DNA of 64,000 nt from an uncultured delta proteobacterium (GCA_963814585.1 CAWFDF010000012.1:1-64000), one strand, 5' to 3'. Shown: positions 5,430-28,492, counted from the first letter of the stretch. Notes: a model not told the origin generated them from the letters alone. Program-made: numbers and translations.

Positions 5430-5455
5430 TGTAACGTCTCGCGGCCTGCCGAGTC
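5430..5455 (+). promoter_or_regulatory. ECF-type promoter motif, oriented antisense to the GST gene
   Basis: TGTAAC-N15-GAGTC, a match to the island consensus. Confidence 0.6.
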
Positions 5456-5470
5456 CATAGGAACGAAGTG

Positions 5471-6100
5471 TCAGATTCCAAAGACCAGCTCCGCCGTCCT
5501 CTGCCAGCTTGGCCTCGCCAGCAGGCGCTCCAGCCAACGCTGCACGGCCGGGTACCTTGTCAGGTCGAATCCGCCGTCGACGATGAGCCAGAGATGCGGG
5601 GCGTAGGCAATGTCGGCGAGGGAGAAGGCCCCCTCCAGCCACTCCATACCGGCCAGCGCACGCTCGAGCACGGGCAGCCAGCGCTCGAGGTCCTTGCGCG
5701 CCGCCTCGGCGGCCCGGGCGTCCCCCGTGGTCTTCCAGAACTCCTGCATGCGCCGGCTGGTTTGGAAGAAGAGTGGCGCGCAGGCCGGCGTCACGTGGGC
5801 GGCCTGGAAGAAGAGCCAGCGCTGGACCGCCGCGCGACCCTCGGTCGTCGCCGGGAGCAGGCCCGCAGCCGGGTTCTTCTCGGCCACGTACCAGTTGATG
5901 GCGTTCGACTCCCAGAGCTGGAAGCCGCCGTCGGAGAGCGCAGGGATCTTCCCCATCGGATTGATCGCCAGGTATCCGGCACCCCGATGTTCGCCACCGT
6001 GCGTGTCGAGCAGCCGGGGGATGAAGGGCACGCCAGCTTCGTAGAGTGCGAAGACGGACCTCGCCGAGTTGCCCGACATCCGCCCGTAGAGGAGTTCCAT
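5471..6100 (-). CDS. Glutathione S-transferase family protein
   Basis: INPMGKIPAL, LWESNAI and FSLADIA motifs. Confidence 0.9.
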   Translation of the reverse strand: MELLYGRMSGNSARSVFALYEAGVPFIPRLLDTHGGEHRGAGYLAINPMGKIPALSDGGFQLWESNAINWYVAEKNPAAGLLPATTEGRAAVQRWLFFQAAHVTPACAPLFFQTSRRMQEFWKTTGDARAAEAARKDLERWLPVLERALAGMEWLEGAFSLADIAYAPHLWLIVDGGFDLTRYPAVQRWLERLLARPSWQRTAELVFGI

Positions 6101-6189
6101 GATGTTCAGCGTACCGTATCGTCCGATGCACGCCAGCACGGCGGACGTTCGCCACGCTCATCGCGCCTACCGTCCAAGGAGTCCACGGC

Positions 6190-7074
6190 ATGAACCGCAT
6201 CAAGTCGGTGTTCATCGGCATCTACCCCGTGGTCACCACGGGCATCCTGGGCTACTCCGCCTGGATGCTGTTCGCCTCCGGCCAAATCCTGCTCTGGGCC
6301 GGACCGCTCCTCACGGTCGTCCCATTCATGTTGTTCCTGGGCCGGGCCATGCTGCTCAGGAACCTGGCGCGGACCAGCGCGAGCTTCCCGGCACTGAACG
6401 CCATGGCCGTCGCTGGCGTGGGACTGAGCGCCTTCCAGGTCATTGGGCGCAATGGCGACCAGTCTGCGCTCCTGCTCGCAGCCGTCGGCGCGGCCACCTT
6501 CCTGGTCTACTCGGTCTGGTACTCGGACCTGGGCCGCACCGCGAGCGGGAAGCTGGCGGTCGGCAAGAAGTTGCCCGACCTCGAGTTCCTGGCCGCCGAC
6601 GGCAAGCCGATTCATGTCCACGACTTCCTCGGCGCGCCCGCGCTCATCTTCTTCTACCGCGGCAACTGGTGCCCGCTCTGCATGGCGCAGGTGAAGGAGG
6701 TGGCCGCCCGCTACCGCGAGATCGCCGAGCTCGGCGCCCGCGTGGCGCTCATCAGCCCGCAGCCGCACGACAACACGCGGGAGCTAGCCCAGCGCTTCGA
6801 GGTCCCCTTCGACTTCCTGACCGACGTGGGGAACAGGGCGGCCCGCGCCCTCGACATCGAGATGAGGAACGGACTGCCAATTGGCTTCGGCCTCCTCGGC
6901 TACGAGAACGACACCGTCTTCCCGACCGTGATCGTGCTCGACGCCCAGGGCGTGATCCGATGGGTGGACCAGACCGACAACTACCGCGTGCGCCCCGAAC
7001 CCGAGACCTTCCTTCCCGTGCTGCGCAGCCTGGTCGGCGCCCCGGAGAAGCCGGTCGCGGTAGCTTCTATCTGA
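6190..7074 (+). CDS. Membrane-anchored peroxiredoxin-like (AhpC/TSA, redoxin) protein
   Basis: About four N-terminal TM segments, then FFYRGNWCPLC and the NYRVRPEP C-terminal motif; AAGGAG RBS. Confidence 0.85.
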   Translation: MNRIKSVFIGIYPVVTTGILGYSAWMLFASGQILLWAGPLLTVVPFMLFLGRAMLLRNLARTSASFPALNAMAVAGVGLSAFQVIGRNGDQSALLLAAVGAATFLVYSVWYSDLGRTASGKLAVGKKLPDLEFLAADGKPIHVHDFLGAPALIFFYRGNWCPLCMAQVKEVAARYREIAELGARVALISPQPHDNTRELAQRFEVPFDFLTDVGNRAARALDIEMRNGLPIGFGLLGYENDTVFPTVIVLDAQGVIRWVDQTDNYRVRPEPETFLPVLRSLVGAPEKPVAVASI

Positions 7075-7093
7075 TGGGAGGGAGGATTCGGAA

Positions 7094-7564
7094 ATGGGCG
7101 CAGTTCTGGAAGTGATCGGAGGGCGCTGGAATCGGCTCATGTCGACCGTGCTGCTTGGATCACTCCTGCTCTCGCCAGGCTGCCACGGTGGCGAGGCATC
7201 GAACCCCGCACCCCAGGGAGGAGCAGGGCAGACCCGGCGATACACGGTCCGGGGCGAGGTGGTCCGGGCGGCCGCCCCGACGAGCCAGGGCGGAGAGGTC
7301 TTCATCCGCCACGAGCCCATCGACGACTTCACCGACAGCAGCGGGAAGGTCGTGGGCATGGCGTCGATGACCATGCCGTTCCCGATGGGACCCGAGGTGC
7401 TATCGGACCCTCTCGCCGCAGGAGACAAGGTCGAACTCCGCTTCCTGGTGGACTGGTCTGGACCCGCCTTCCGGGTGGAGCGAATCCAGAAGTTGCCGCC
7501 CGCGACTCGCCTTCGTTTCGGCCCGGCGGCGCTCCGGTCGAAGCCGGTTCAACCATCGCAATAG
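7094..7564 (+). CDS. CusF-like periplasmic copper-binding lipoprotein
   Basis: YTVRGEV..IRHEPI..MASMTMPF with His/Met ligands; lipobox-like LSPGC. Confidence 0.75.
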   Translation: MGAVLEVIGGRWNRLMSTVLLGSLLLSPGCHGGEASNPAPQGGAGQTRRYTVRGEVVRAAAPTSQGGEVFIRHEPIDDFTDSSGKVVGMASMTMPFPMGPEVLSDPLAAGDKVELRFLVDWSGPAFRVERIQKLPPATRLRFGPAALRSKPVQPSQ

Positions 7565-7609
7565 CGGAGGGTCTCGCAGACGAATCGGCCGGATAGCCCG
7601 GTGAGCACA

Positions 7610-8848
7610 TCACCGCGCCAGGCGGATCCCCGTCATCTGCCAGCGCGCCTGCGGTGGGAAGAAGTTGCGGTAGCTCGGCCGCAGGTGGCTCCCCGGCGAG
7701 AGGCAGGAGCCACCACGCAGGACCAGCTGGTTCACCATGAACTTGCCGTTGTACTCGCCGACCGCCCCGGCTGCGGCCTTGAAGCCCGGGTAGCCCACGT
7801 ACGGACTGGACGTCCAGGACCAGGCGCCCCCAAGCAAGGGCACGTCGCCGGAAGTGGCGAGCGGCTCCAGCCACCCGTTCTCCACGAACTGCCCGCCCGC
7901 TGGAGACGAGCGCGCAGCCGTCTCCCACTCGGCCTCGGTGGGGAGCCGCGCTCCAGCCCACCGGGCGAAGGCGTCCGCCTCGTAGTAGCTCACGTGGGTC
8001 ACCGGGGCGCCGGGATCGACTGGCCACTCGCCGTGGAGCGTGAAGCGCGACCAGCCGCCTTCTCGGCGGGTCCAATAGGGCGGCGCCTCCCAGCCCCCGG
8101 CCTGGGCCGCGGCAAATCCGTCCGAGAGCCAGAGCTCGGCGCGCCGGTAGCCGCCGTCCTCGATGAAGGCCAGGTACTCACCCGCGGTCACCGGGCGAGT
8201 GGCCACGGCGAAGGGCTGGAGGAAGGCCTGGTGAGCCGGCCCCTCGTTGTCGAAGGCGAAGCCATCGCCCTCGTGACCGATCTGGACCAGGCCACCGTCG
8301 TGCTGGTGCCACCTCAGCGGCGTCTCGACGGATGGGGGCGGCGCGGGCCGCGCGCGGAAGGCCGGCGCCAGCGGATTGCGCGAGAAGGCGTGGTGGATGT
8401 CCGTGAGCAGCAGCTCCTGGTGCTGCTGCTCGTGGTGGAGTCCGAGCTCCACGAGCGCCATCACCCCAGGCGCCGCCGCCCCGGGCGAGGCGAGGAACGC
8501 GCCGATGGCCGCGTCCACCGACGCCCGGTAGGCCCTCACCTCGGCCACGGTGGGCCGGGTCAGCAGGCCGCGCTCCGGTCGGGGGTGCCGCGGTCCCGCC
8601 GCCACGTAATAGGAGTTGAAGATGACGTCCCAGCCGTCCCGAAATGGACGGTAGCCCGGGGCATGGGGGACGAGCACGAAGGTCTCGAAGAACCAGCTGG
8701 TGTGCGCCAGGTGCCACTTCACCGGGCTGGCGTCCGGCATCGACTGGACGACGTAGTCCTCCAGCTCGAGCGTCTCGCAGAGCCGCTCGGTGGCCGCCCG
8801 CACCTCCTTCCACCGCGGGATCGGGCTGCCTGCCCCCTGCACCGTCAC
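7610..8848 (-). CDS. egtB: Ergothioneine biosynthesis sulfoxide synthase EgtB (type II-like)
   Basis: QSMPDASPVKWHLAH, FNSYY..RPER, HHEQQHQE iron ligands, and an FGE-like domain with EYNGKFM and YRNFF. Confidence 0.92.
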   Translation of the reverse strand: MTVQGAGSPIPRWKEVRAATERLCETLELEDYVVQSMPDASPVKWHLAHTSWFFETFVLVPHAPGYRPFRDGWDVIFNSYYVAAGPRHPRPERGLLTRPTVAEVRAYRASVDAAIGAFLASPGAAAPGVMALVELGLHHEQQHQELLLTDIHHAFSRNPLAPAFRARPAPPPSVETPLRWHQHDGGLVQIGHEGDGFAFDNEGPAHQAFLQPFAVATRPVTAGEYLAFIEDGGYRRAELWLSDGFAAAQAGGWEAPPYWTRREGGWSRFTLHGEWPVDPGAPVTHVSYYEADAFARWAGARLPTEAEWETAARSSPAGGQFVENGWLEPLATSGDVPLLGGAWSWTSSPYVGYPGFKAAAGAVGEYNGKFMVNQLVLRGGSCLSPGSHLRPSYRNFFPPQARWQMTGIRLAR

Positions 8849-9867
8849 GCCGCCTCCGGGCCGACCCGCCAGAGCGCGTCGGAGAACCAGCGCCGCTCGT
8901 CATGGAAGCGCTCCACCTCCTCGAAGCCTGCCTCCTGGGCCAGCGCCGCGATCTGGGCCTCGGTGTACTTCCAGGAGATCTCGGTCTGGATGGCCTCGCC
9001 CTCGCGGAACTCGAAGCGCTGGCCCGCGACGTGGACGACCTGCCGTCGCCGGGAGACGAGCCAGCTCTCCATGGCCGGCCGACCCGCATCAAAGGTGGCC
9101 CGGTGCTCGAAGTCCGAGAGGTCGAAGTCGGCGCCCAGCTCGCGGTTGACGCGGGAGAGCAGGTTCAGGTTGAAGGCCGCAGTCACGCCCTCCGGGTCGT
9201 CATAGGCGCCCCGGAGCAGGCCCTCGGGCTTGAGGAGATCGAAGCCGACCATCAGGTGGTCGCCGGGCCGGAGCGCCCGCCGCAGCGACCTCAGCAGCGC
9301 CAGCGCCGCCGTCCACTCCAGGTTGCCGATGTTGCTGCCGAGCAGGAGCGCCAGCAGCGGCGCGGTGCCGCTGGTGTGCGACGCCCGAGCCAGCCCGTCC
9401 ACGTAGTCACCGTGCACGGGCCGCACCTCGAGCGCCGGCCAGGAGGCCCGCAGGTGCTCAGACGCCGCCTCGAGCGCCGTGGCCGACACGTCGACCGGGA
9501 CGTAGACCGCCGCTGGCGACCGCCGAAGGGCAGCGTCCATGATCAGCCTGGTCTTGGTGCCGTCACCGGCGCCGAGATCGACGACGGACGACGGTCCGCT
9601 GGCGAGCAGCGCCACCATCGCGTTGGCGTGGCGCTCGATGATGCCGGTCTCGATCCGCGTCGGGTAGTAGCCGGGGAGCCTCATGATCCGCTCGAAGAGG
9701 CGGCTCCCCCAGGCGTCATAGAACCAGACCGACGGGATGGCCCGGAGTGGCAGCGCCAACCCGGCCAGTACGTCACGGCGGAAGCGCTGGCGTGAGGTTT
9801 CGCCCGCGCTGACCGCGTCTCGGCGTGTCGACCTGATCTCAGCGACGGCGGCTGGCGCGCTCGCCAT
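8845..9867 (-). CDS. egtD: L-histidine N(alpha)-methyltransferase EgtD
   Basis: WFYDAWGSRLFERI..YYPTR, DLGAGDGTKT, GSNIGN, AYDD.GVTAAFNLN, TEISWKY; coupled to egtB. Confidence 0.92.
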   Translation of the reverse strand: MASAPAAVAEIRSTRRDAVSAGETSRQRFRRDVLAGLALPLRAIPSVWFYDAWGSRLFERIMRLPGYYPTRIETGIIERHANAMVALLASGPSSVVDLGAGDGTKTRLIMDAALRRSPAAVYVPVDVSATALEAASEHLRASWPALEVRPVHGDYVDGLARASHTSGTAPLLALLLGSNIGNLEWTAALALLRSLRRALRPGDHLMVGFDLLKPEGLLRGAYDDPEGVTAAFNLNLLSRVNRELGADFDLSDFEHRATFDAGRPAMESWLVSRRRQVVHVAGQRFEFREGEAIQTEISWKYTEAQIAALAQEAGFEEVERFHDERRWFSDALWRVGPEAA

Positions 9868-9890
9868 GAACCCCTCCATGTCCTGGCCGG

Positions 9891-10175
9891 CTACCGCTCG
9901 ACGATGACGCCGTGCCAGAAGGCGATATAGCCGGCGATGCGACCGGCTGCCTCCTTGGGCGCCGGGTAGTACCAGGCCGCGTCGGCGTTCCGCTGCCCGC
10001 CGACCTCCACGTCATGGTAGCTGGCCTGCCCCTTCCAGCCGCACATGGTGTGGGTCTGGCTCTCGCGCAGGTACTCCGCCTTCACCGAGCCGGGAGGGAA
10101 GTAGACGTTCCCCTCCACCAGCTCGGTCTCGTCGCTCTCGGCCAGCACCGCACCGTTCCAGGTTGCCCGCGCCAT
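9891..10175 (-). CDS. DUF427 domain protein
   Basis: WNGAVLAES..VEGNVYFP..CGWKGQASY..AAWYYP; GAGGTGA RBS. Confidence 0.85.
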   Translation of the reverse strand: MARATWNGAVLAESDETELVEGNVYFPPGSVKAEYLRESQTHTMCGWKGQASYHDVEVGGQRNADAAWYYPAPKEAAGRIAGYIAFWHGVIVER

Positions 10176-10216: not shown

Positions 10217-10242
10217 GACTCTCGGGATCGAACTCCATTGCA
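10217..10242 (-). promoter_or_regulatory. ECF-type promoter for DUF427-egtD-egtB
   Basis: TGCAAT-N15-GAGTC. Confidence 0.65.
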
Positions 10243-10316: not shown

Positions 10317-10342
10317 CGTAACGTCCCCGGTCCCCGGGAGTC
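10317..10342 (+). promoter_or_regulatory. ECF-type promoter for the VTT gene
   Basis: CGTAAC-N15-GAGTC. Confidence 0.7.
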
Positions 10343-11769: not shown

Positions 11770-11795
11770 TGTAATGCCCGCCCGCCTCGCGGGTC
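11770..11795 (+). promoter_or_regulatory. ECF-type promoter for arsM-PiT
   Basis: TGTAAT-N15-GGGTC. Confidence 0.7.
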
Positions 11796-11856: not shown

Positions 11857-12903
11857 ATGCACGACCTCGTCAAGAACTACTACGGACGTCAGCTCAAGAC
11901 CTCCGACGACCTCAAGACCTCGGCCTGCTGTGACGCCTCGAACGCCCCAGCCTGGCTCAAGCCGCTCCTCTCCCGCATCCACCCCGAGGTCCTCAGCCGC
12001 TACTACGGCTGCGGGCTGGTCGCCCCCACCCAGCTCGACGGGCTGCGGGTTCTCGACCTCGGCAGCGGCTCGGGGCGCGACGTCTATGCCCTGGCCCAGC
12101 TGGTCGGCGAACGCGGCGAGGTGACCGGCGTGGACATGACCGACGAGCAGCTCGAGGTGGCGCGGCGGCACCAAGCCTACCACCGGGAGGCATTCGGGTA
12201 CGACCGCGAGAACGTGCGCTTCCTCCACGGCTACATCGAGCAGCTCGACGAGCTCGGGCTCGAGCCCGGCAGCCTCGACGTCATCGTCTCCAACTGCGTG
12301 GTCAACCTCTCACCGGACAAGGAGGCGGTGCTGCGCGGCGTCCACCGGCTGCTCAAGCCCGGGGGTGAGTTCTACTTCTCCGACGTCTACGCCAATCGGC
12401 GCGTGCCCAACGCCGTGCGCAACGACCCGGTGCTCTATGGCGAGTGCCTGGGTGGGGCGCTCTACTGGAACGACTTCCTCGAGCTGGCGCGGCGCGCCGG
12501 CTTCGCCGACCCCCGCCTGGTCGAGGACCGGCCGCTCGAGATCACCGATCCGGCGCTGGCCGAGCGGGTCGGGAACCTTCGCTTCTTCTCCGCCACCTAC
12601 CGGCTCTTCAAGCTGGAGGGGCTCGAGACCGACTGCGAGGACTACGGCCAGGCCGTCGTCTACCGCGGCACGCTCCCCCAGCAGCCCCACCGGTTCGTGC
12701 TCGACAAGCACCACGACATCGAGGCCGGTCGGGTCTTCCCGGTCTGCGGGAACACCTGGCGCATGCTCCACGACACCCGCTTCCGCGAGCACTTCGACTT
12801 CATCGGCAGCTTCGGCCGCCACCTCGGTATCTTCGAGGGGTGCGGCACCGGGCTGCCGTTCGAGCCCGAGCGGAAGGCTGATCTGGCGAGCGGGTGCTGC
12901 TGA
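11857..12903 (+). CDS. arsM: Arsenite S-adenosylmethionine methyltransferase (ArsM/AS3MT-like)
   Basis: LKTSACC, RYYGCG, VLDLGSGSGRD, VSNCVVNL, GECLGGAL, C-terminal GCC; AAGGAG RBS. Confidence 0.88.
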   Translation: MHDLVKNYYGRQLKTSDDLKTSACCDASNAPAWLKPLLSRIHPEVLSRYYGCGLVAPTQLDGLRVLDLGSGSGRDVYALAQLVGERGEVTGVDMTDEQLEVARRHQAYHREAFGYDRENVRFLHGYIEQLDELGLEPGSLDVIVSNCVVNLSPDKEAVLRGVHRLLKPGGEFYFSDVYANRRVPNAVRNDPVLYGECLGGALYWNDFLELARRAGFADPRLVEDRPLEITDPALAERVGNLRFFSATYRLFKLEGLETDCEDYGQAVVYRGTLPQQPHRFVLDKHHDIEAGRVFPVCGNTWRMLHDTRFREHFDFIGSFGRHLGIFEGCGTGLPFEPERKADLASGCC

Positions 12904-14027
12904 TGCTGCCCCTCCTCGTGGTCTCCGTGGTCGCTGCCCTGGCATTCGCCAATGGTGCCAACGACGTCTCCAAGGGGATCGCGCCGCTGGTCGGCAGCGG
13001 CGTGGCCGGGTACCGCCCCGCCATCGCCTGGGGCACGGCCTGGACCGCGGCTGGCGCGGTGCTGGGCGCCGCCTTCGCCGGTGCGATGCTGGCCACCTTC
13101 GGCAAGGGGCTGCTCGCTCCGGGTGTGACGCCGAGTCTCGGAGCCGCCTTCGCAGCCCTCTTCGGCGCCGCGGCCTGGGTGGCCCTGGCCACCCGGACCG
13201 GGCTGCCGGTCTCCACGACCCACGCCATCGTCGGTGCAATCATTGGGGCCACCGTGGCCTCACGCGGCATGGACGCCATCCGCTGGAGCTCGCTGGGCGG
13301 GAAGGTCGTGGTGCCCCTTCTGCTGAGCCCAGTCGTCGCCTTTGTCCTCACGGCCGTCCTGGCGCGCCTGCTTCGCGGGAACCGGTCCCCCCGTGCGGTC
13401 GGCGTCGACTGCCTCTGCGTCGAGGCGTCACCCGGCCTGGCACTCGCGGCGCGGCCTGGCCAGGCCGCGGCCTTGGCCAGCGGCGTCCACCTCCAGTTCA
13501 CCACGGGCCCGGTGGCCGAGTGCGCCGCCCATCGACCAGACGCTGCGCGCGCCACCCTCGGCCAACTGCAGTGGGTCAGCAGCGCGGCCACCAGCCTCGC
13601 CCGCGGCATGAACGACGCGCCCAAGATGGTGGCGCTTGGCCTAGCTGCCGCGGCACTCGGCGTTGCCGGAGCGGTCTCCCCCCCGGTCCTCTACGCCGCG
13701 GTGACGGCCGGGATGGTCGTGGGCGGCCTTCTCGCGGGGCGCAGGGTGACCACCCTTCTAGCCGAGAAGGTGACCGTGCTGGACACCTCGTCGGGCCTGG
13801 CCGCCAATGGGGTCACGGCCCTGCTGGTCGCGGCCGGCGCACTCTACGGCCTGCCCATGTCGACCACCCACGTGGCCTCGGGCGGAATCGCCGGTGTCGG
13901 GGCGGTGAGTGGCTCGGTCAACTGGGCGACGGTTCGCCAGATGGCCCTGGCCTGGGTGGTGACCCTTCCGGCTAGCGCAGCGCTGGCGGGCCTCGGCGAA
14001 CTCGCGGCCCGCGCCCTGGGCGCCTGA
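12903..14027 (+). CDS. PiT/Pho4-family anion (phosphate/sulfate) transporter
   Basis: ANGANDVSKGIA, GLPVSTTH, GMNDAPK, GLPMSTTH; TGATG coupling to arsM. Confidence 0.88.
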   Translation: MLPLLVVSVVAALAFANGANDVSKGIAPLVGSGVAGYRPAIAWGTAWTAAGAVLGAAFAGAMLATFGKGLLAPGVTPSLGAAFAALFGAAAWVALATRTGLPVSTTHAIVGAIIGATVASRGMDAIRWSSLGGKVVVPLLLSPVVAFVLTAVLARLLRGNRSPRAVGVDCLCVEASPGLALAARPGQAAALASGVHLQFTTGPVAECAAHRPDAARATLGQLQWVSSAATSLARGMNDAPKMVALGLAAAALGVAGAVSPPVLYAAVTAGMVVGGLLAGRRVTTLLAEKVTVLDTSSGLAANGVTALLVAAGALYGLPMSTTHVASGGIAGVGAVSGSVNWATVRQMALAWVVTLPASAALAGLGELAARALGA

Positions 14028-14463: not shown

Positions 14464-14994
14464 ATGTCCTGGATCGCCCTTCCCGCCTCCTCGCTCCCGA
14501 ACGTCCTCGCCGCGCACGCTGGCACGCCGGACCTGCTCCGGACCCACCTGGCCTTCTACCGGCACGTCATGTTCGGCCAGAGCGGCCTCTCGCGCCGGGA
14601 GCGGGAGCTGGTGGACACGGCCGTCAGCGTCCAGAACCGCTGCTTCTATTGAACGGCCCACCACGGGCACGCCCTCCGTGACGAGGGCGCCAGCGACGAC
14701 GAGGTGACGGCGGTCTGCCGGGATCCGGTGGGCGGTGGCGCCACGGAGCGCGAGCGCGCCTTGCTCGGCTACGCCTCACGCCTCACCACGCTGGCGAACC
14801 CGATGACGGAGACCGACCTCGCTCCCTTGCTGGCAGCGGGCCTCCTCGATGACGACATCCGGGATCTCGCCCAGGTGGTCGGCTACTTCAACTACGTCAA
14901 CCGGCACGTGGAAGGACTCGGCGTGCAACTCGAACCGGACCACCCCGGGCGGCACTGGGCCGAGCTGGCCTTCCCTCGGCGCGACGTGCCCTGA
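14464..14994 (+). CDS. AhpD/CMD peroxidase-like selenoprotein, CxxU motif (Sec TGA at 14650-14652)
   Basis: ORFs 14386..14652 and 14704..14994 are in frame: SGLSRRERELVDTAVSVQNRCFY-U-TAHHG...YFNYVNRHVEGLG. GAGGA RBS; downstream hairpin. Confidence 0.9.
14670..14689 (+). promoter_or_regulatory. Candidate SECIS hairpin
   Basis: CGCCCTC-CGTGAC-GAGGGCG, 17 nt after the UGA, with GTG in the loop. Confidence 0.55.
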
Positions 14995-15785: not shown

Positions 15786-15793
15786 GGAACCTC

Positions 15794-17826: not shown

Positions 17827-17840
17827 GGTGTTCCCCTTCG

Positions 17841-17890: not shown

Positions 17891-17909
17891 GGTTTGACGA
17901 CAACTGGGG

Positions 17910-18603: not shown

Positions 18604-18629
18604 GACTCCGGTCAATCTGTCTCATTACA
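18604..18629 (-). promoter_or_regulatory. ECF-type promoter for the YceI-bufferin operon
   Basis: TGTAAT-N15-GAGTC. Confidence 0.72.
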
Positions 18630-18684: not shown

Positions 18685-18711
18685 CGTAACGCCAGGGGTG
18701 ACCAAGGCGTC
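18685..18711 (+). promoter_or_regulatory. ECF-type promoter for thioredoxin (16-nt spacer variant)
   Basis: CGTAAC-N16-GCGTC. Confidence 0.55.
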
Positions 18712-18762: not shown

Positions 18763-19101
18763 ATGGGCAAGGCAGGCGGCGCGAAGACGATCGGTGTAGC
18801 GGAGTTCGAGCAGCAGGTGCTGCTCGCGACCGAGCCCGTGGTGGTGGACTTCTTCGCCACCTGGTGCGGCCCCTGCCGTGCGCTGGCCCCCACCCTCGAC
18901 GAGCTGGCCGGCGATCTCGCTGGCCGGGCCCACGTCCTGAAGCTCGACGTCGACCAGGCGCCCGAGCTGGCCAGCCGGTACGGCATCTCTTCCATCCCAT
19001 GCCTGGTGGTCTTCAAGGGCGGCCGCGAGGTGGGACGCCTGCTGGGCGCGGTCCCCAAGCGGCGCATCGCCAGCGTGGTGGACCAGGCCCTGGCCGCCTG
19101 A
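18763..19101 (+). CDS. trxA: Thioredoxin
   Basis: VVVDFFATWCGPC..YGISSIPCL. Confidence 0.9.
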   Translation: MGKAGGAKTIGVAEFEQQVLLATEPVVVDFFATWCGPCRALAPTLDELAGDLAGRAHVLKLDVDQAPELASRYGISSIPCLVVFKGGREVGRLLGAVPKRRIASVVDQALAA

Positions 19102-19124: not shown

Positions 19125-19661
19125 TCAGCCGAGCAGGCAGGCCTGCAGCGCCTTCCTGGCCCGGTGAAGCAAAACCGCCACCCGCCCCGGCTGGAGCTCG
19201 AGGGCCCTGGCGGCCTCTGGCCCGGAAGCCTCGTCCAGCATGCGCAGCGTCACGACGCGCCGCTGCAACTCGGCGAGCCGGTCGACGCAGCCGAGGAACC
19301 GGACGTGCTCCTCCGCCCGCTCGATCAGCGCCTCGACGGAAGGCTCGTCGGCCGGAAGTTCGGCGACCTCTTCGAACGCCGCACGGGGCACGGAGCGATG
19401 GTGTCGCCGGCGCAGGTTGCGCGCAGCGTTACGGACCACCACCTCGAGCAGCTTCCGGGCCTCACCGTCCTCCGCCACCAGCGTGCGAGCTTGCGGCAGC
19501 AGGAGGAAGGTGTGGAAGGCCTCCTGGACCGCGTCGAGCGCGTCGTCCGGCTGGAGCCCCTCGGCCCGGGCCGTCCGCGCCAGTGACGTGGAGTGCCCCC
19601 GGGCGAGGTCGGAGACCCACCCCAGGAAGTCGGTCGTCTTGATGCCGGCGTCGGTGTTCAT
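19125..19661 (-). CDS. ECF RNA polymerase sigma factor (no adjacent anti-sigma)
   Basis: DALDAVQEAF (region 2), VVRNAARN, and region 4 RVAVLLHRARKAL. Confidence 0.85.
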   Translation of the reverse strand: MNTDAGIKTTDFLGWVSDLARGHSTSLARTARAEGLQPDDALDAVQEAFHTFLLLPQARTLVAEDGEARKLLEVVVRNAARNLRRRHHRSVPRAAFEEVAELPADEPSVEALIERAEEHVRFLGCVDRLAELQRRVVTLRMLDEASGPEAARALELQPGRVAVLLHRARKALQACLLG

Positions 19662-19675: not shown

Positions 19676-19701
19676 GACTCCCGAGCGGCCGCGACGTTAC
19701 A
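19676..19701 (-). promoter_or_regulatory. ECF-type promoter of the sigma gene (possible autoregulation)
   Basis: TGTAAC-N15-GAGTC, 14 nt before the ATG. Confidence 0.72.
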
Positions 19702-19725: not shown

Positions 19726-19751
19726 TGTAATGCCAGCACCTGCCGCGAGTC
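19726..19751 (+). promoter_or_regulatory. ECF-type promoter for the CMD-arsS operon
   Basis: TGTAAT-N15-GAGTC. Confidence 0.72.
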
Positions 19752-19793: not shown

Positions 19794-20132
19794 GTGCACG
19801 ACGACAGCTACTACCACTCCAAGGACCTCGGCCGCTTCGCCGAGATGGGCAAGAACCGTCCCGACCTGGCCCGGAAGTTCTTCGACTACTACGGTGCCGT
19901 CTTCGCCGAGGGCGCGCTCTCCGAGCGTGAGAAGGCGCTCATCGCGCTCGGCGTGGCCCATGCGGTCCAGTGCCCCTACTGCATCGACGCCTACACGCAG
20001 GGCGCGCTCGAGAAGGGGGCCGACCTCGACCAGCTGACCGAGGCGGTCCACGTGGCCGCGGCCATCCGCGGTGGGGCGTCCCTGGTCCACGGCGTCCAGA
20101 TGCGGAACCACGCCGAGAAGCTCGGGGTCTGA
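19794..20132 (+). CDS. Arsenosugar-cluster-associated CMD/AhpD peroxidase-like protein (TIGR04169-like)
   Basis: YY..DLGRF..KFFDYYGAVFAEGALSEREKALIAL..QCPYCIDAY..GGASLVHGVQM. Confidence 0.88.
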   Translation: MHDDSYYHSKDLGRFAEMGKNRPDLARKFFDYYGAVFAEGALSEREKALIALGVAHAVQCPYCIDAYTQGALEKGADLDQLTEAVHVAAAIRGGASLVHGVQMRNHAEKLGV

Positions 20133-20133
20133 C

Positions 20134-21231
20134 GTGTCCCTGCCCACCCTGAACGCCCGCGGTGCCCCCATCGCCGACCCGCTGGTCCAGATCCGGCGGC
20201 TCCGGGAGGTCCCTCTGGATCTCGAGTTCGAGGAGGCCCTGGCCGAGAGCGGCCTCTCCCCGCTGCGCCCGACCCGCATCGACATCTTCCAGGTCAACGT
20301 GGGGCGGCTCTGCAACATGTCGTGCCGCCACTGCCACGTCGATGCCGGCCCGGACCGGACCGAGGCCATGTCGCGCGAGACCTTCGAGGCCTGCCTGTCG
20401 GCGCTTCGGAGGAGCGACATCCCCACGGTGGACATCACCGGCGGCGCCCCGGAGCTCAACCCGCACTTCCGCTGGTTCGTCGAGGAGGTCCGGGCACTGG
20501 GCCGCCACGTCATCGACCGCTGCAACCTGACCATCCTGGAGGTGCCCTCCCAGCGCGACCTCGCCGGCTTCCTGGCGAAGCACCAGGTCGAGGTCGTGGC
20601 CTCACTGCCGCACTACCGCCAGCCGCTCACCGACACGCAGCGCGGCGAGGGGGTCTTCGAGCGCTCCATCTCGGCCCTGAGACGCCTCAACACCCTCGGC
20701 TACGGAGACGGCCAGAGCGGCCTCACGCTCAACCTGGTGACCAACCCGGTCGGAGCCTTCCTGCCGGCGTCGCAGGCCTCGCTCGAGAAGGAGTGGAAGC
20801 GGGAGCTGCTGCGGCTCCACGGCGTCCGCTTCGACGAGCTCTTCACCATCACCAACGTCCCCATCTCCCGCTACCTCGACTGGCTGGTGGAGACCGGGAA
20901 CCTCGAGACCTACATGGAGCGGCTCGCCGCGGCGTTCAACCCGGCGGCCGCGCGCGGCGTCATGTGCCGCAGCACCATCTCGGTGGCCTGGGACGGACGC
21001 CTGCACGACTGCGACTTCAACCAGATGCTCGACATGGGCCTGGAGGGGTCTGCGCCGGCCCACGTGAAGGACTTCGATCTCGGCGCGCTCACCCAACGCC
21101 GCATCCTCACCGGCCGCCACTGCTTCGGCTGCACCGCCGGGGCTGGCTCCTCGTGCGGAGGCGCCACCGTCGGTGGGCGCTCCGCCGTCACCACGCCCCA
21201 CACCTCGCCCATCCCCGAGACCACCACATGA
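20134..21231 (+). CDS. arsS: Radical SAM/Cys-rich protein ArsS (arsenosugar biosynthesis, TIGR04167-like)
   Basis: QVNVGRLCNMSCRHCHVDAGP (CxxxCxxC), DITGGAPE, DRCNLT, MCR..DCDFNQML, HCFGCTAGAGSSCGG. Confidence 0.92.
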   Translation: MSLPTLNARGAPIADPLVQIRRLREVPLDLEFEEALAESGLSPLRPTRIDIFQVNVGRLCNMSCRHCHVDAGPDRTEAMSRETFEACLSALRRSDIPTVDITGGAPELNPHFRWFVEEVRALGRHVIDRCNLTILEVPSQRDLAGFLAKHQVEVVASLPHYRQPLTDTQRGEGVFERSISALRRLNTLGYGDGQSGLTLNLVTNPVGAFLPASQASLEKEWKRELLRLHGVRFDELFTITNVPISRYLDWLVETGNLETYMERLAAAFNPAAARGVMCRSTISVAWDGRLHDCDFNQMLDMGLEGSAPAHVKDFDLGALTQRRILTGRHCFGCTAGAGSSCGGATVGGRSAVTTPHTSPIPETTT

Positions 21232-22757
21232 CCGCCGCTGCCGCCCACGCCCCGACCCTCATCGAGTCCGACCCGCACGACCAGGCGCTGCTGGCGCACG
21301 TCCACCCATCCGCATGGAAGAACCCGGTGCCGGCAAGCCGCTACGACCTGGTGGTCGTCGGCGCCGGTACCGCCGGCCTGGTCTCCGCGCTCGGGGCGGC
21401 CGGCCTGGGCGCCCGGGTGGCGCTGGTGGAGCGCGCGTTGCTGGGCGGCGACTGCCTCAACCACGGCTGCGTCCCGTCGAAGGGCGTGATCCGCGCGTCG
21501 CGGGCCGTGTATGACGCCCGCGAGGGTGCCACCTTTGGCGTCGAGCCGGCCGCACCGCCGCGGATCGACTTCGGCGTGGCCATGGCCCGCATGCGGCGGC
21601 TCCGGGCCGGCATCGCCCACAACGACTCGGCGGCGCGCGCCACCTCGCTCGGCGTGGATGTCTTCCTGGGCAACGGCCGGTTCGTCGGTCCCGACGCGCT
21701 GGAAGTGGAAGGCGTCACGCTGCGCTTCAAGCGGGCCGTCATCGCCTCGGGCGCCCGCGCCTCGGCGCCCCCCATCCCGGGACTGGCCGAGGCCGGCTAC
21801 CGCACCAACGAGACCATCTTCACCCTCACCGAGCTGCCGCGGCGGCTCGGAGTGGTGGGCGCCGGCCCCATCGGCTGCGAGCTGGCCCAGGCCTTCCGTC
21901 GCTTCGGGTCCGAGGTGACCATCGTCGCCAGCGACCCGCGCGTTCTCCCGCGCGAGGACCCCGACGCCTCGGCCGTGCTGCAGCGCCAGCTCGAGCGCGA
22001 AGGGGTCCGGCTTGTGCTGGGTGGAAAGCTCACCCGCGTCGACCGCCGTGGCGACGAGCGGATCCTGCTGGTCGAGAAGGAAGGGGCCACGGTCCCGGTC
22101 GTCTGTGACGAGCTGCTCGTCGCCATCGGGCGCGCCCCCAACGTCGAGGGGCTCGGGCTGGAGGCGGCCAGCGTGGTCGTCGACCGCACGGGCGTGGTGG
22201 TGGACGACCGGCTCCGGACCGCCAACCCGCGCATCTACGCGGCTGGTGACGTCTGCTCGGCCTACAAGTTCACCCACGCTGCCGACGCCATGGCGCGCAT
22301 CGTGCTCCGCAACGCCTTCTTCTTCGGGCGGGGCAAGGCGAGCGGCCTGGTCATCCCCTGGGCGACCTACACCGATCCCGAGATCGCCCACGTCGGCCTG
22401 ACGGCCGCCGAGGCGGCGGCGGCTGGCGAACGGGTCCGCACGCTGACCATCCCCTTCGCCGAGGTCGACCGGGCCATCCTCGACGGCGAGCCAGAGGGCT
22501 TCGCGCGCATCCACGTCGACGCCAAGACCGGACGCCTGCTCGGGGCCACCGCCGTGGCCCGCCACGCCGGTGAGATGATCGGCGAGCCGACGCTCGCCAT
22601 CGGCCAGGGGCTCTCGGCGGCCCACCTCTCCACCACCATCCACCCCTACCCCACGCAGGCCGAGGTCTGGCGGAAGCTGGGGGACGCCTGGCAGCGGACC
22701 AGGCTCACGCCACGCGCCAGGCGGGTCCTCTCCACGCTCATCTCCTGGAGGAGGTAG
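21228..22757 (+). CDS. Flavin disulfide oxidoreductase (MerA/Lpd-like, without MerA terminal Cys pairs)
   Basis: GAGTAG, GGDCLNHGCVPSK, GAGPIGCE, AAGD, HPYPT. Confidence 0.88.
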   Translation: MTAAAAHAPTLIESDPHDQALLAHVHPSAWKNPVPASRYDLVVVGAGTAGLVSALGAAGLGARVALVERALLGGDCLNHGCVPSKGVIRASRAVYDAREGATFGVEPAAPPRIDFGVAMARMRRLRAGIAHNDSAARATSLGVDVFLGNGRFVGPDALEVEGVTLRFKRAVIASGARASAPPIPGLAEAGYRTNETIFTLTELPRRLGVVGAGPIGCELAQAFRRFGSEVTIVASDPRVLPREDPDASAVLQRQLEREGVRLVLGGKLTRVDRRGDERILLVEKEGATVPVVCDELLVAIGRAPNVEGLGLEAASVVVDRTGVVVDDRLRTANPRIYAAGDVCSAYKFTHAADAMARIVLRNAFFFGRGKASGLVIPWATYTDPEIAHVGLTAAEAAAAGERVRTLTIPFAEVDRAILDGEPEGFARIHVDAKTGRLLGATAVARHAGEMIGEPTLAIGQGLSAAHLSTTIHPYPTQAEVWRKLGDAWQRTRLTPRARRVLSTLISWRR

Positions 22758-22763
22758 CGGAGC

Positions 22764-23429
22764 GTGGCCAAGGACGTGCTCTGCATCCTGGTGAAGTCGC
22801 CCCGCCTCGGCGAGGTGAAGACCCGGCTCATGCCGGCCGTCGGGCCTGAAGGCTCGGCCGCCTTGGCGCTCGCCTTCCTCGACGACACGCTGGCGATGGC
22901 CCGTGGTCGCGAGTGGGCGCGGGTGGTGGTTTCCGTGGCCGGCGACTCGTCGCTCCTGGTCCTGCCGGACGACGTCGAGGTCTGGTCCCAGGGGGCCGGC
23001 GACCTCGGTGAGCGCATGGAGCGGGCCCTGCTTCGAGCCCTGGTGAAGGCGCCCCGAGCGATCCTGATCGGGACCGACTCTCCCGGGCTGCCCCCGCGCC
23101 TCCTCGAAGGCGCCCGTACGGCGTTGGCCACTCACGACGCCGTGCTCGGGCCGGCCAGTGATGGCGGCTTCTACCTCATCGGGCTCGACCGCTGCGAGCC
23201 GGGTCTCCTCTGCGGCCTTCCCTGGAGCCGAAGCGACACGCTGGTGCACACCGAGGCCCGCCTGCGCCACGCCGGTCGGAGCGTGGCCCGACTCGAACCC
23301 TGGTTCGACGTCGACGAGCCAGCCGACCTCCTGCGCCTCGCAGCGCTCATGGAGGGCGGTGAGATCGTGGCTCCGGCGACGGCCCGGGCGCTTGCCTCGC
23401 TGGGACTCCTCGGCGGAGTGCCCGCGTGA
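22764..23429 (+). CDS. TIGR04282-like (DUF2064, CofC-like) glycosyltransferase-fold protein
   Basis: KSPRLGEVKTRL, QGAGDLGERM, IGTDSP, GPASDGGFYLIG, DVD. Confidence 0.88.
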   Translation: MAKDVLCILVKSPRLGEVKTRLMPAVGPEGSAALALAFLDDTLAMARGREWARVVVSVAGDSSLLVLPDDVEVWSQGAGDLGERMERALLRALVKAPRAILIGTDSPGLPPRLLEGARTALATHDAVLGPASDGGFYLIGLDRCEPGLLCGLPWSRSDTLVHTEARLRHAGRSVARLEPWFDVDEPADLLRLAALMEGGEIVAPATARALASLGLLGGVPA

Positions 23430-24112
23430 GCCTGACGGTCATCCTCCCGACCCTGAACGAGGCCGCGCGGATCGGCGCGCGGCTCGACGAACTCGCGACC
23501 ATGCCCGGGATCGACGAGGTCATCGTGGTGGACGGGGGGAGCGTGGACGCCACGGTGCCGATCTCCTCGGCCCGCCCGGGGGTCCGGGTCCTCTCTGCTC
23601 CGGCCGGACGGGCCGCGCAGCAGAACGCCGGGGCGGCTGCCGCCAGCGGCGACGTCCTGCTCTTCCTGCACGCCGACGTGTCACTCCCGATCGGCGCGGC
23701 GCGCCACGTGAGCAGGGCCCTGGAGGACCGGACCGTGGTGGCCGGCGCCTTCCGGACCTGGACCGTGCCGGACGACCGACCGTCGCGGCTGGCCCCGCTC
23801 CTCCACCTCGCCGACCTGCGCTCCCGCTACAGCGGTCTCCCATACGGCGACCAGGCCATCTTCGTTCGCTCCGACGCCTTCCGTGCCGCCGGTGGCTTTC
23901 CGGACCAGCCGCTCATGGAGGATCTGGAGCTCTCGCGCCGGCTCCGTCGGTTGGGGCGGATCAAGACGGTGCCGGCCTCGGTGAGCGTCTCGGGGCGGCG
24001 ATTCCTGTCGCGGCCGATCTTCTACTTCCTTGCCGTCAACCTCTTCCCGGCCCTCTACGCACTCGGGGTCTCGCCAGCCACGCTGAAGCGGCTCTACGGC
24101 GATCCGCGCTGA
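23426..24112 (+). CDS. TIGR04283-like GT2 glycosyltransferase
   Basis: ILPTLNE, VVDGGS, GRAAQQNAGA, LFLHAD, YGDQAIF, LMEDLE, SGRRF. Confidence 0.9.
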   Translation: MSLTVILPTLNEAARIGARLDELATMPGIDEVIVVDGGSVDATVPISSARPGVRVLSAPAGRAAQQNAGAAAASGDVLLFLHADVSLPIGAARHVSRALEDRTVVAGAFRTWTVPDDRPSRLAPLLHLADLRSRYSGLPYGDQAIFVRSDAFRAAGGFPDQPLMEDLELSRRLRRLGRIKTVPASVSVSGRRFLSRPIFYFLAVNLFPALYALGVSPATLKRLYGDPR

Positions 24113-25338: not shown

Positions 25339-25364
25339 GGTAATCCCCGCGGGCTTCCGGAGTC
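25339..25364 (+). promoter_or_regulatory. ECF-type promoter for DUF547-sigma-anti-sigma
   Basis: GGTAAT-N15-GAGTC. Confidence 0.72.
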
Positions 25365-26213: not shown

Positions 26214-26876
26214 ATGAGCTCGCCCGCTCCAGGCCGAGAGACCAGTCTCAGCGCCGAGGCCGCGGATGAGCAGGCGCTCGTCCAGCGGCTTCGCGCCGGA
26301 GATCGCGCCGCCTTCACCGCGGTGGTGGTCCAGCACGGCGGTGCGCTCCTCCGCCTCGCCTCGACCTTCGTGAAGGACCGCGCGCTCGCCGAGGAGGTCG
26401 TACAGGACGCCTGGCTCTCGGCGCTCGAACACCTCGACGCTTTCGAAGGGCGCGCCTCGCTCAGGACCTGGCTCTTCCACATCGTCGCCAACCGGGCCAG
26501 GACCCGCCTGAGCCGGGAAGGCCGGAGCGTGCCGTTCTCCTCCCTCGGCAGGCCCGAGGACTCCGACGAGCCGGCTGTCAGCCCCGACCGCTTCGACCAG
26601 GGCGGGATGTGGAAGGAGCCCCCCGGGCGGTGGTCGGAGGAGAACCCCGAGCGCCTGGCGCAGGGGGTCGAGACACGGGCTGCCATCGAGCGAGCCATCG
26701 CCGAGCTCCCCGAAGCCCAGCGCGCCGTCATCACCCTTCGGGATATCGAGGAGTTGGAGACGGAAGAAATCTGTAATCTTCTCGACATCACGGTGTCGAA
26801 TCAGAGGGTGCTGTTGCACAGGGCCCGATCCAGGGTCCGGCAAGCCCTCGAGAAGCTCATGGCCGGAGGGCGCTGA
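26214..26876 (+). CDS. ECF RNA polymerase sigma factor
   Basis: AEEVVQDAW, FEGRASLRTWL, ICNLLDITVSNQRVLLHRAR. Confidence 0.92.
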   Translation: MSSPAPGRETSLSAEAADEQALVQRLRAGDRAAFTAVVVQHGGALLRLASTFVKDRALAEEVVQDAWLSALEHLDAFEGRASLRTWLFHIVANRARTRLSREGRSVPFSSLGRPEDSDEPAVSPDRFDQGGMWKEPPGRWSEENPERLAQGVETRAAIERAIAELPEAQRAVITLRDIEELETEEICNLLDITVSNQRVLLHRARSRVRQALEKLMAGGR

Positions 26877-27112
26877 TGCTGACCTGCAAGCAGATCACCG
26901 AACTGGTGACGGCCTACGCCGAGGGGCAGCTTCGCTTCATGGATCGGATGCGCTTCCGCCTGCACATCGGGATGTGCGCGAACTGCAAGACCTACGTCCG
27001 TCAGCTCCAGGTCACGGCCAAGGCGCTGGGAAAGTTGCCTGAGCCGGAGATTCCGCCCGAGCTACAGGCGGAGCTGCTGCGCCGCTTCGAAGGCTGGAAG
27101 GCGCAGCGGTAG
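26876..27112 (+). CDS. zf-HC2 (ZAS) anti-sigma factor
   Basis: MLTCKQ...LHIGMCANC (HxxxCxxC); TGATG coupling to the sigma gene. Confidence 0.9.
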   Translation: MLTCKQITELVTAYAEGQLRFMDRMRFRLHIGMCANCKTYVRQLQVTAKALGKLPEPEIPPELQAELLRRFEGWKAQR

Positions 27113-27126
27113 GCTCAACCTCGATC

Positions 27127-27152
27127 GGTAACGTCCCTCTCACCTGTGAGTC
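27127..27152 (+). promoter_or_regulatory. ECF-type promoter for patatin-NrtS-like genes
   Basis: GGTAAC-N15-GAGTC. Confidence 0.72.
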
Positions 27153-27176
27153 AATCCAGGAAGAGGAGATCGAGCG

Positions 27177-28196
27177 ATGGCACGGGCACTGGTCCTCACG
27201 GCAGGTGGAATCACCGGCGCGATGTACGAGGTGGGTGTCCTCCGGGCCGTCGAGGAGCGCCACGGGTCCCCGCTCGACCTCTTCGACCTCTTCGTCGGCG
27301 TCTCCGCGGGTGCGACCGTGGCGACCTTCCTGGCCCAGGGTGTCCCGGCCACCCGGCTCTACGAGGCCCTGCTCGCTGGCGGCGACCCGCTCTTCCCGCT
27401 GGAGCAGCGTCATGTGGCCGCGCTCGACCTGGCCCGAGCCGTCCGCCTGGGCGGAACGGCGGCCAGGCTGGCGCTGCGGGCGATCCTTCGGCTCCTGGTC
27501 CGACGCCCGGCCCCTCCAAGCACCACCACCCCAGGTCTGCCCGCGGGCCTCTTCGACACGGAGCCCTACCGGAAGTTCATCGCCTCCACCCTGGCGGAGC
27601 GTGGACTCTCCGACGACTTCCGGGCCCTCTCCCGGCCCCTCCTCATCCCGGCCACCGAACTCGACTCCGCCCAGCGAGTCACCTTCGGCTTGGCGCCCTG
27701 GGACGACGTCCCCATCTCCACGGCCGTGGCCGCCTCCTCCGCCATCCCGGGCTTCTTCGAGCCGGTCGCGCTCCGCGGCCGGCAGTTCATCGACGGCAAT
27801 GTCGGAGCGGTGGCCCACCTCGACTTGGTTGCGGCCCGCGGCATCGAGGAGGTGCTGGTCGTGAGCCCGCGTGCGCCGGTCGAGAACGTCGGGGGACCCT
27901 GCATCATCCCCGGCGAACACGGCGATTGCCTGTCGCTCCGCGAGCGCGGGCTCTGGGCCGTATACGAGCAGGCGACCCGCATCGAGCACCAGGAGAGGCT
28001 CCACCTGGGCATCGATCGCTTCCGTCACCTCCATCCAGGGACAAGGGTTTCGCTCGTCGAACCGGAGCGGGCCGATGCCACGCTCTTCCTCGCGAACCCC
28101 ATGGGGCTGGAGGCCCGGCGAGAGGTGCTGGCCGCCGGGTACGCTCGGGGGCAGGCCATCCTCTCGGCCGGCGAGTTCGTATTGGAGGCTGCGTGA
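27177..28196 (+). CDS. Patatin-like phospholipase
   Basis: AGGITG, GVSAG (GxSxG), ASSAIPGFF, IDGN. Confidence 0.88.
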   Translation: MARALVLTAGGITGAMYEVGVLRAVEERHGSPLDLFDLFVGVSAGATVATFLAQGVPATRLYEALLAGGDPLFPLEQRHVAALDLARAVRLGGTAARLALRAILRLLVRRPAPPSTTTPGLPAGLFDTEPYRKFIASTLAERGLSDDFRALSRPLLIPATELDSAQRVTFGLAPWDDVPISTAVAASSAIPGFFEPVALRGRQFIDGNVGAVAHLDLVAARGIEEVLVVSPRAPVENVGGPCIIPGEHGDCLSLRERGLWAVYEQATRIEHQERLHLGIDRFRHLHPGTRVSLVEPERADATLFLANPMGLEARREVLAAGYARGQAILSAGEFVLEAA

Positions 28197-28471
28197 ACCA
28201 CCGCCCCCCAGGGAGCCGGAGCACCGCGAGAGCTCTGCCCGGCTCCAGCGACCTTCGTCGGGCGATCCTGGTCTCGGCCGGCGTGGGGACGGCGCTGGTC
28301 CTGCTCAACCAGGGCGACCTCCTTCTCGGCGCGGCCGCCGGCGCCCAGTTGCCCAGCAGGCTGGCCTGGAAAGTCCCACTGACCTACCTCGTGCCCTTCC
28401 TGGTCTCCTACCTCTCGAGCCGCGCCGCGTCCCGTGCCACCTCCCGTCACACCGTCACGATCCCGGAGTAA
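28193..28471 (+). CDS. Small two-TM membrane protein (NrtS-like)
   Basis: VGTALVLLNQGD..LTYLVPFLVS; GTGA overlap with the patatin stop. Confidence 0.7.
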   Translation: MNHRPPGSRSTARALPGSSDLRRAILVSAGVGTALVLLNQGDLLLGAAAGAQLPSRLAWKVPLTYLVPFLVSYLSSRAASRATSRHTVTIPE

Positions 28472-28492
28472 TCATTCCGGCGGTGGCGAGTC
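28467..28492 (+). promoter_or_regulatory. ECF-type promoter for the right-end selenoprotein
   Basis: AGTAAT-N15-GAGTC. Confidence 0.7.

Follow-up and report, generated by a model that had tools for sequence, protein, structure and literature searches.

A genomic island in an uncultured deltaproteobacterium with a predicted private ECF sigma factor regulon and a putative promoter site embedded in sigma factor codons

Near one end of a contig from an uncultured delta proteobacterium lies a 26.4-kb genomic island whose defense genes appear to answer to a sigma factor of the island's own. The window analyzed here, a stretch of 64,000 nucleotides (GCA_963814585.1 CAWFDF010000012.1:1-64000), opens contig C12 of a 4.34-Mb genome (G000) that is 92% complete. 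Sequence analysis indicates that copies of the consensus (t)GTAAY-N15-GAGTC, equivalently GTAAY-N17-GTC, mark a real, island-private regulon of an extracytoplasmic function (ECF) sigma factor. Two such factors, sigma1 and sigma2, are encoded in the island, and comparative evidence assigns the motif to sigma2, the gene of which contains an additional copy of the site within its own codons.

Results

The island motif has the properties of an ECF promoter

A first-pass annotation of the window had listed eleven copies of the motif, and all eleven are present in the sequence, with GTAAY on the plus strand beginning 1 nt past the coordinate originally given (Table 1). The arrangement described there also holds, in that ten sites have a 15-nt spacer (site 18686 is the sole N16), three pairs are back to back and divergent, and 10 of the 11 end 5–61 nt upstream of a gene start into which they point. 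What the listing overlooked is the copy at 26773(+), inside the sigma2 gene. Two of the listed sites lie in unusual surroundings. Specifically, site 5431 faces the 3′ end of a GST gene, the next start on its own strand being 734 nt away, and site 28468 shares bases with the stop codon of a small open reading frame (ORF). For the orphan site 5431, the 250 other genomes offered a single homolog of the gene at 6190, with no site near it.

A comparison with shuffled and host DNA, which the first-pass annotation had suggested as a check, came out clearly in favor of the motif. The strict form, G[TC]AA[CT]-N15-GAGTC, has nine matches in the island (3194–29565), as compared with a mean of 0.14 (maximum 2) in 300 dinucleotide shuffles of the island and two matches in the other 4,311,347 bases of the genome, and no island match was obtained when its spacer was set to 10–14 or 16–21 nt. 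The looser form used in the earlier listing yields 11 island matches against a shuffle mean of 0.97 (maximum 4), and its 56 matches elsewhere in the genome make it less specific when taken alone. In a weight-matrix ranking derived from the eleven sites, ten of them and the new site at 26773(+) outrank every host site, site 18686 scoring lower. No such site accompanies the host paralogs of bufB, egtBD, GST and the ArsM-like gene, and sigma-70 consensus promoters were not found between 10000 and 29700 of the window. Taken together, the motif is bipartite and directional, combines a fixed spacer length with a variable spacer sequence, and faces gene starts, and its reading as an ECF promoter is supported.

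Two further observations concern the motif. Beyond the island, motif-like sites occur at C16:60871(+) and C9:316954(+), both apparently intergenic and either possible stray targets or chance matches. Within it, a stretch of 15–17 nt is common to 10249–10263 and 18644–18660, upstream of two minus-strand promoters and nowhere else in the genome, and could represent an operator or else a relic of promoter duplication.

Homolog loci point to sigma2 as the reader

Both island sigma factors have the short form of group 4 proteins, with regions 2 and 4 only, region 2 of sigma1 being unmatched in Pfam at 1e-5. To distinguish them, we searched the 1.5-kb flanks of homologous loci with the sigma gene masked. 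The 29 sigma2 and 35 sigma1 loci were the best-scoring ones returned by the searches, minus the window's own locus and one duplicate, and kin among them are not independent. In the sigma2 flanks, GTAAY-N15-NNGTC was found at 9 of 29 loci, the NNGAC variant at 15 and one or the other at 21 (shuffle means 0.9 and 0.6), and GTAAY-N15-[C/G]ACCT at none of the 29. The sigma1 flanks contained this last form at 19 of 35 loci (shuffle mean 0.2), the NNGTC form at 0 of 35, and the NNGAC form at two, both of which also hold sigma2; shuffle means across all flank tests were 0.0–1.5. Because the homolog loci of the two factors carry different motifs, sigma2 is the likely reader, and we consider it quite probable that the island motif is read mainly by sigma2 and not by sigma1. 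Sigma1 had been the first guess, from the site 14 nt upstream of its gene, and was rejected on the basis of these flank motifs.

The wider context of the sigma2 family has the same tenor. A conserved core, promoter-YceI-bufA2-bufB-DUF2063, stands beside sigma2 and its anti-sigma, and 13 of 14 relatives with the operon in the fetched regions have a site before the YceI-like gene (10 GTC, 3 GAC; G027 has none). Ten relatives combine a GTC site before YceI-bufA2 with a neighboring sigma2, and none of the ten has a sigma1 match in the same sample. At the three loci observed to have close homologs of both factors (G000, G134 and G369), the site before sigma1 mirrors the local sigma2 variant, being GAGTC, TGGAC and CGGAC, respectively. 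G369 also has much of the cargo in a rearranged, parallel cluster, where 20.5 kb hold 5 of the 12 GTAAY-N15-NGGAC sites of that genome. On a 54-row tree, the T/A label of the −10 base changes three times, and the sigma2 of the window is placed among the T-type (GTC) rows. These labels were set by eye from nearby sites, with loci lacking a site or having mixed sites (e.g. G180) omitted. A single-residue code for this base, at sigma2 residue 89 (E. coli sigmaE R76), was considered and rejected: Arg occurs in 23 of 28 A-type and other residues in 23 of 26 T-type rows, a rule left unsupported because the label changes only three times on the tree and other columns score higher.

Sigma1 homologs have GTAAT-N15-[C/G]ACCT before themselves or before thioredoxin, DUF417, AhpC and CMD genes, and sigma1 of the island is likely a downstream gene whose usual targets now lie behind sigma2 sites. 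This family, which has no anti-sigma, was found in 52 of 401 genomes of a phylum sample; its members lack the usual region-2 Trp and have two conserved Cys residues, and sigma1 may be a directly redox-controlled sigma factor. Broader counts of GTAAY-N15-SACCT phylum-wide (401 genomes) and of TGTAAY-N17-GTC family-wide (71 genomes) were near or below the reversed-pattern control and thus uninformative.

The alternative in which both island factors read the sites, sigma1 having a broadened or shifted −10 preference and serving as an amplifier free of anti-sigma, we regard as unlikely. Sigma1 is intact, lies behind a copy of the motif and is retained beside sigma2 in G000, G134 and G369; moreover, G000 has no GTAAY-N15-SACCT site, yet the island contains typical targets of the sigma1 family (thioredoxin, AhpD-like, peroxiredoxin). 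Against this stand the absence of NNGTC from the 35 sigma1 loci and the closest sigma1 relative found, in G399 (same genus, 72–73% identical), which still has GTAAT-N15-GACCT before an ortholog of the island's AhpD-like gene. Far less probable still is control by sigma1 alone, autoregulated from 19700, or by a host sigma factor. The site closest to any sigma gene does precede sigma1, and the host has 10 other ECF-like matches, but the motifs of the sigma1 and sigma2 families dissociate, the motif accompanies sigma2 in genomes with no sigma1 match, no host factor exceeds 40% identity to sigma2 across the aligned portion, and host DNA and the host paralogs of the cargo are almost free of the motif.

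Rare codons preserve a site within the sigma2 gene

The site at 26773 falls in the region-4 codons of sigma2 for E-I-C-N-L-L-D-I-T-V-S, its end lying about 78 nt upstream of the start of the anti-sigma gene. We followed it in 33 evaluable genome homologs and 80 metagenome loci, pooled as 111 distinct genes. Among the genome homologs, all 24 Cys-Asn pairs are written TGT-AAY (19 as TGTAAT) and one Cys-His as TGTCAT, with the other eight using TGC; at the metagenome loci, TGT is used in 21 of 22 Cys-Asn pairs and TGC for 46 of 49 other Cys residues. The pooled figures are TGT in 43 of 44 Cys-Asn pairs and TGC in 54 of 57 Cys residues before another residue. Genome-wide, 96 of 100 Cys-Asn pairs of the host are written TGCAAC. 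Where the pair is Arg-Asn, all seven genes have CGT-AAC, keeping GTAAC despite the residue change, and CGT accounts for 199 of 2834 other Arg codons in the pooled genes. Selection on the DNA sequence of the site is well supported, since rare codons preserve it across homologs.

Of the pooled genes, 47 have both the −35 and the −10 half, 57 have neither and 7 have one of the two. Where the anti-sigma gene is not directly downstream, the internal site is absent (5 of 5 loci), and where it is, the site is present at 25 of 28. On a tree that omits the columns of the site, its state changes up to 18 times, at least five of these on supported branches. The internal site is probably a negative-feedback promoter giving the anti-sigma alone. 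In two relatives with no internal site, G217 (L085) and G180 (L109), a second copy of the anti-sigma gene lies nearby, that of G180 with its own GTAAC-N15-GAGTC site.

Least probable is an explanation in which the sites are operators of a non-sigma regulator or remnants of promoter-region duplication, with protein constraint or RNA structure accounting for the internal site: the extra stretch shared by sites 10241 and 18628, unique in the genome, does mean that some copies may have spread by duplication, but the bipartite, directional form with fixed spacing, variable spacer sequence and facing starts speaks against it, and protein constraint can neither fix synonymous rare codons nor keep GTAAC through a Cys-to-Arg change.

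A model for the circuit

Zinc-binding anti-sigma (ZAS) proteins set free their sigma factor on oxidation or metal displacement, as established for RsrA. The island anti-sigma has no evident membrane segment by eye, and no credible terminator separates the DUF547 gene from sigma2. In the circuit that we infer, sigma2 would be kept inactive by this co-encoded soluble protein until oxidation of its thiols or competition by a metal (Cu, As or Hg) disrupted its Cys4/His30/Cys34/Cys37 zinc site and released sigma2. Free sigma2 would then transcribe about ten units, including the bufferin, arsenosugar-type, egtBD, thioredoxin, peroxiredoxin, GrdB-like selenoprotein and sigma1 genes. It would also amplify itself from 25340 through DUF547-sigma2-anti-sigma (a positive loop), and site 26773 would yield the anti-sigma alone and thereby shut off the response (a negative loop). 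As for the inducing signal, the cargo would point to thiol oxidation, copper or arsenic.

Several points weigh against this picture. Eight of the 29 sigma2 flanks lack any site within 1.5 kb, and 3 of the 28 loci with a downstream anti-sigma gene lack the internal site. Only five independent pairs on well-supported branches test the joint loss of the −35 and −10 halves, a number too small for significance (sign test p 0.0625, with 4.8 concordant on average). Six GTC-type relatives (G302, G288, G211, G232, G170 and G283) combine a GAC internal site with a GTC external one, which may mean that this base is read with loose specificity. The model also leaves unexplained why three genomes retain an intact sigma1 with no canonical site for it nearby. 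An oxidative stimulus as the trigger is an assumption of the model, made by analogy. Finally, no consensus site faces the GST-cysK-GrdB1 unit (6139 to 3564), the SpoIIAA-like gene, the AhpD-like gene at 14464 or the TrxB-like gene, all of which have degenerate candidates only, and the membrane peroxiredoxin-CusF pair has just the distant 5431 site. The earlier suggestion that one island sigma factor drives the whole cargo thus survives in its first part, the comparative data naming sigma2, and is too wide in its second.

The island, its host and its cargo

Named homologs suggest that the host belongs to the Anaeromyxobacteraceae. The island lies between tRNA-Pro(cgg) and a copy of the 3′ half of that tRNA, a direct repeat at both ends as in other tRNA-integrated islands, and has a GC content of 0.70, as compared with 0.75 to its right. 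At eight loci from seven same-genus relatives that share the tRNA and the right-hand gene, no island gene was found within about 1.5 kb of tRNA-Pro. An excisionase-like remnant is present, and an integrase of the island's own was not found: the tyrosine integrase family PF00589 has four matches in the genome and none on the island's contig. No serine recombinase was seen among the scanned island ORFs, a genome-wide search for these enzymes not having been made. A second direct repeat (26 nt identical, 3306–3343 and 29461–29498) lies just within both island ends and also near the tRNA-Pro copies of relatives, possibly as an arm-type recombination site. To the left of the att copy, positions 1–3150 have a GC content of 0.64 and hold a pectinacetylesterase-like gene with myxobacterial Cys-rich repeats; this DNA probably belongs to a further element that used the same tRNA for insertion. 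In host DNA, an ORF of 4097 aa occupies 39463–51756(−).

Table 1. Boundaries, predicted promoter sites and genes of the island (window coordinates)
Feature	Coordinates	Strand	Remarks
44-nt copy of tRNA-Pro 3′ half	3151..3194	−	att-like direct repeat, left boundary; 26,414 nt from tRNA copy
Excisionase-family HTH remnant	3300..3515	+	open stretch, no clear start; TIGR01764 42.6 bits (cut-off 28.8); PF12728
GST, cysteine synthase, GrdB/PrdB-like candidate selenoprotein	3564..6139	−	in-frame TGA, U-x-x-C; no consensus promoter facing unit
Site GTAAC-N15-GAGTC	5431..5455	+	antisense to GST; 734 nt before peroxiredoxin gene at 6190
Membrane AhpC/TSA protein (6190), CusF-domain protein	6190..7564	+	Pfam
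DUF427, egtD, egtB	7610..10175	−	TIGR03438, TIGR03440 over cut-off; PF04248; behind site 10241
Site GCAAT-N15-GAGTC	10217..10241	−	before egtB/egtD/DUF427 unit
Site GTAAC-N15-GAGTC	10318..10342	+	before VTT/TVP38 and AhpD-like gene (11163)
VTT/TVP38, then AhpD-like gene (11163)		+	downstream of site 10318
Site GTAAT-N15-GGGTC	11771..11795	+	before ArsM-like methyltransferase and PiT-family permease
ArsM-like methyltransferase	11857..12903	+	behind site 11771
PiT-family permease	12903..14027	+	follows ArsM-like gene
AhpD-like candidate selenoprotein	14464..14994	+	C-F-Y-TGA; TGA=U reading passes TIGR01926, 122 bits vs 81.8
Buf2-type bufferin operon: YceI-like, BufA2 precursor, BufB MNIO, DUF2063, peroxiredoxin	15009..18554	−	NF050166 74 vs 60; NF050167 379 vs 310; PF09836
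Site GTAAT-N15-GAGTC	18604..18628	−	before YceI-like/Buf2 operon; conserved core target of sigma2 family
Site GTAAC-N16-GCGTC	18686..18711	+	before thioredoxin; single atypical site
Thioredoxin	18763..19101	+	behind site 18686
Sigma1, ECF sigma factor	19125..19661	−	no adjacent anti-sigma; TIGR02937 55.7 vs 42.9
Site GTAAC-N15-GAGTC	19676..19700	−	before sigma1, 14 nt from its start
Site GTAAT-N15-GAGTC	19727..19751	+	before arsenosugar-type cluster at 19794
Arsenosugar-type cluster: TIGR04169 peroxidase-like, ArsS radical SAM, FAD oxidoreductase, TIGR04282 and TIGR04283 glycosyltransferases	19794..24112	+	NCBIfam cut-offs all passed
Site GTAAT-N15-GAGTC	25340..25364	+	before DUF547-sigma2-anti-sigma
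Sigma2, ECF sigma factor	26214..26876	+	predicted reader of motif; 220 aa; Pfam Sigma70_r2 PF04542, r4 PF08281
Site TGTAAT-N15-GTGTC	26773..26797	+	T of TGTAAT = 26772; inside sigma2 region 4
Zinc anti-sigma	26876..27112	+	78 aa; Cys4, His30, Cys34, Cys37; NF052368 57 vs 50; zf-HC2
Site GTAAC-N15-GAGTC	27128..27152	+	before patatin-like gene
Patatin-like gene	27177..28196	+	behind site 27128
Site GTAAT-N15-GAGTC	28468..28492	+	before second GrdB/PrdB-like candidate selenoprotein
Second GrdB/PrdB-like candidate selenoprotein	28529..29302	+	in-frame TGA, U-P-M-C; behind site 28468
tRNA-Pro(cgg)	29566..29640	−	integration site, right boundary; relatives match window only from about here rightwards

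The cargo also includes TrxB-like, SpoIIAA-like and DUF547 genes and has two peroxiredoxins in all. The bufferin operon contains the elements of a Buf2 cluster, namely a BufA2 precursor, an MNIO maturase and a DUF2063 partner; its first gene (17910–18554) is conserved, has no Pfam match and is YceI-like by language-model features, with a high score. Three ORF pairs are broken by an in-frame TGA at U-x-x-C or C-x-x-U redox motifs, at 3564–4331(−), 14464–14994(+) and 28529–29302(+). Hairpins of the selenocysteine insertion sequence (SECIS) type after the three TGA codons were no better than in shuffles (z −0.3 to −1.0), so selenocysteine insertion would rest on homology and on the SelB and tRNA-Sec that the host encodes. 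Compared with its 74% identical G399 homolog, the AhpD-like gene at 11163–11750 appears to be frameshifted near 11630, which would be either a sequencing error or a sign of a pseudogene.

Discussion

Significance of the regulon

The broadest reading of these data is that sigma2 represents a widespread uncharacterized ECF subfamily with its own off-switch promoter in region-4 codons, gained and lost as the anti-sigma gene moves; that its −10 base (T/A) switched more than once, with regulons following; and that in this island it captured a second sigma factor together with the former targets of the latter and co-regulates bufferin, ergothioneine, selenoprotein and arsenosugar-type genes. As a joint claim we advance this tentatively, giving it slightly less than an even chance. 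Were it true, it would suggest a thiol- or metal-stress role for the ArsS/TIGR04282/TIGR04283 cluster. If control is shared as predicted, Buf2 bufferins and the arsenosugar-type cluster, itself poorly understood, may respond to one and the same zinc-sensed stress. The 26-kb inserted block seemingly carries its own stress-response switch for metal and oxidative defense genes.

The analysis also yields promoter predictions for two ECF subfamilies, that of sigma2 (GTAAY-N17-G[T/A]C) and that of sigma1 (GTAAT-N15-[C/G]ACCT). With a common −35, distinct −10 elements and natural T/A variants of sigma2, these would form a ready set for tests of −10 recognition or for orthogonal switches, and the internal site offers a clean, testable case of DNA acting as codon and promoter at once. 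In full-text searches that did not cover subscription papers, no listed paper describes either promoter or the family in its title or at the start of its abstract.

Comparison with known systems

The comparisons below are with the accessible parts of the cited sources. The closest parallel is Neisseria sigmaE/MseR, with the promoter GTMAGBWTT-12/13-CGTCTAAH and an anti-sigma whose residues have been tested (PMC2893595). As in the island, a soluble zinc anti-sigma with Cys4, His30, Cys34 and Cys37 at identical positions is encoded at +1, GTC falls 22–23 nt after the start of the −35 (22 in the island), and an autoregulated operon and redox-repair targets are involved. Unlike the Neisseria system, the island has GTAAY and not GTMAG as its −35, about ten units in place of the operon and msrAB, and an island-borne sigma factor that has a further sigma among its predicted targets and a site within its own gene. 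The available part of PMC3240639 adds nothing on the motif.

With respect to classification, Neisseria sigmaE is assigned to ECF293, formerly ECF13, a group whose predicted promoters are given as "not conserved" (PMC7826278, supplement part 31). The sigma2 locus shares with ECF293 (formerly ECF13/101/117) the soluble zinc-finger anti-sigma at +1. The linker between regions 2 and 4 of sigma2 is about 14 residues longer than in E. coli sigmaE, a feature for which the accessible part of PMC7826278 states no threshold. Sigma2 has one Cys, as compared with the three in region 4 described for most ECF293 subgroups, which weakens but does not exclude the assignment, and it scores 119 bits against TIGR02943, below the cut-off of 162. 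Given the missing cysteines, we do not file sigma2 as an ECF293 member. ECF270, found in Deltaproteobacteria and having a soluble ZAS, is an alternative group.

In terms of targets, the island resembles Caulobacter SigF/NrsF (ECF16), in which an ECF factor with a GTAAC-type −35 controls bufferin operons (PMC11626156, PMC12452194, PMC7826278); specifically, a GTAACC-CGTA promoter serves bufA/B/C operons under copper stress. The −10 differs, and NrsF is a six-helix membrane anti-sigma, unlike the 78-aa zinc finger of the island; no DUF1109 six-helix membrane protein, as is typical of ECF16, is encoded at +1 of sigma2. Sigma genes were reported for Buf1 clusters and not for Buf2 clusters (PMC12452194), whereas the Buf2 operon of the island travels with sigma2 and a YceI-like gene; the term YceI is absent from the main text of that paper. 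As for sigma1, the absence of an adjacent anti-sigma and the two conserved cysteines recall CorE/CorE2 (ECF238) of M. xanthus, a myxobacterial metal-response ECF system (PMC7826278).

Internal anti-sigma promoters are represented by PrshA inside sigH of C. glutamicum (PMC3489674) and by P3 of E. coli rseA inside rpoE (PMC8595263). In both, a promoter for the cognate sigma factor within the sigma gene gives rise to an anti-sigma-only transcript, as is predicted for the island. The circuit design, comprising an ECF sigma factor, a zinc anti-sigma and an internal anti-sigma promoter, is therefore of a known kind; the island site differs from these precedents in overlapping region-4 codons and in showing family-wide conservation of rare codons.

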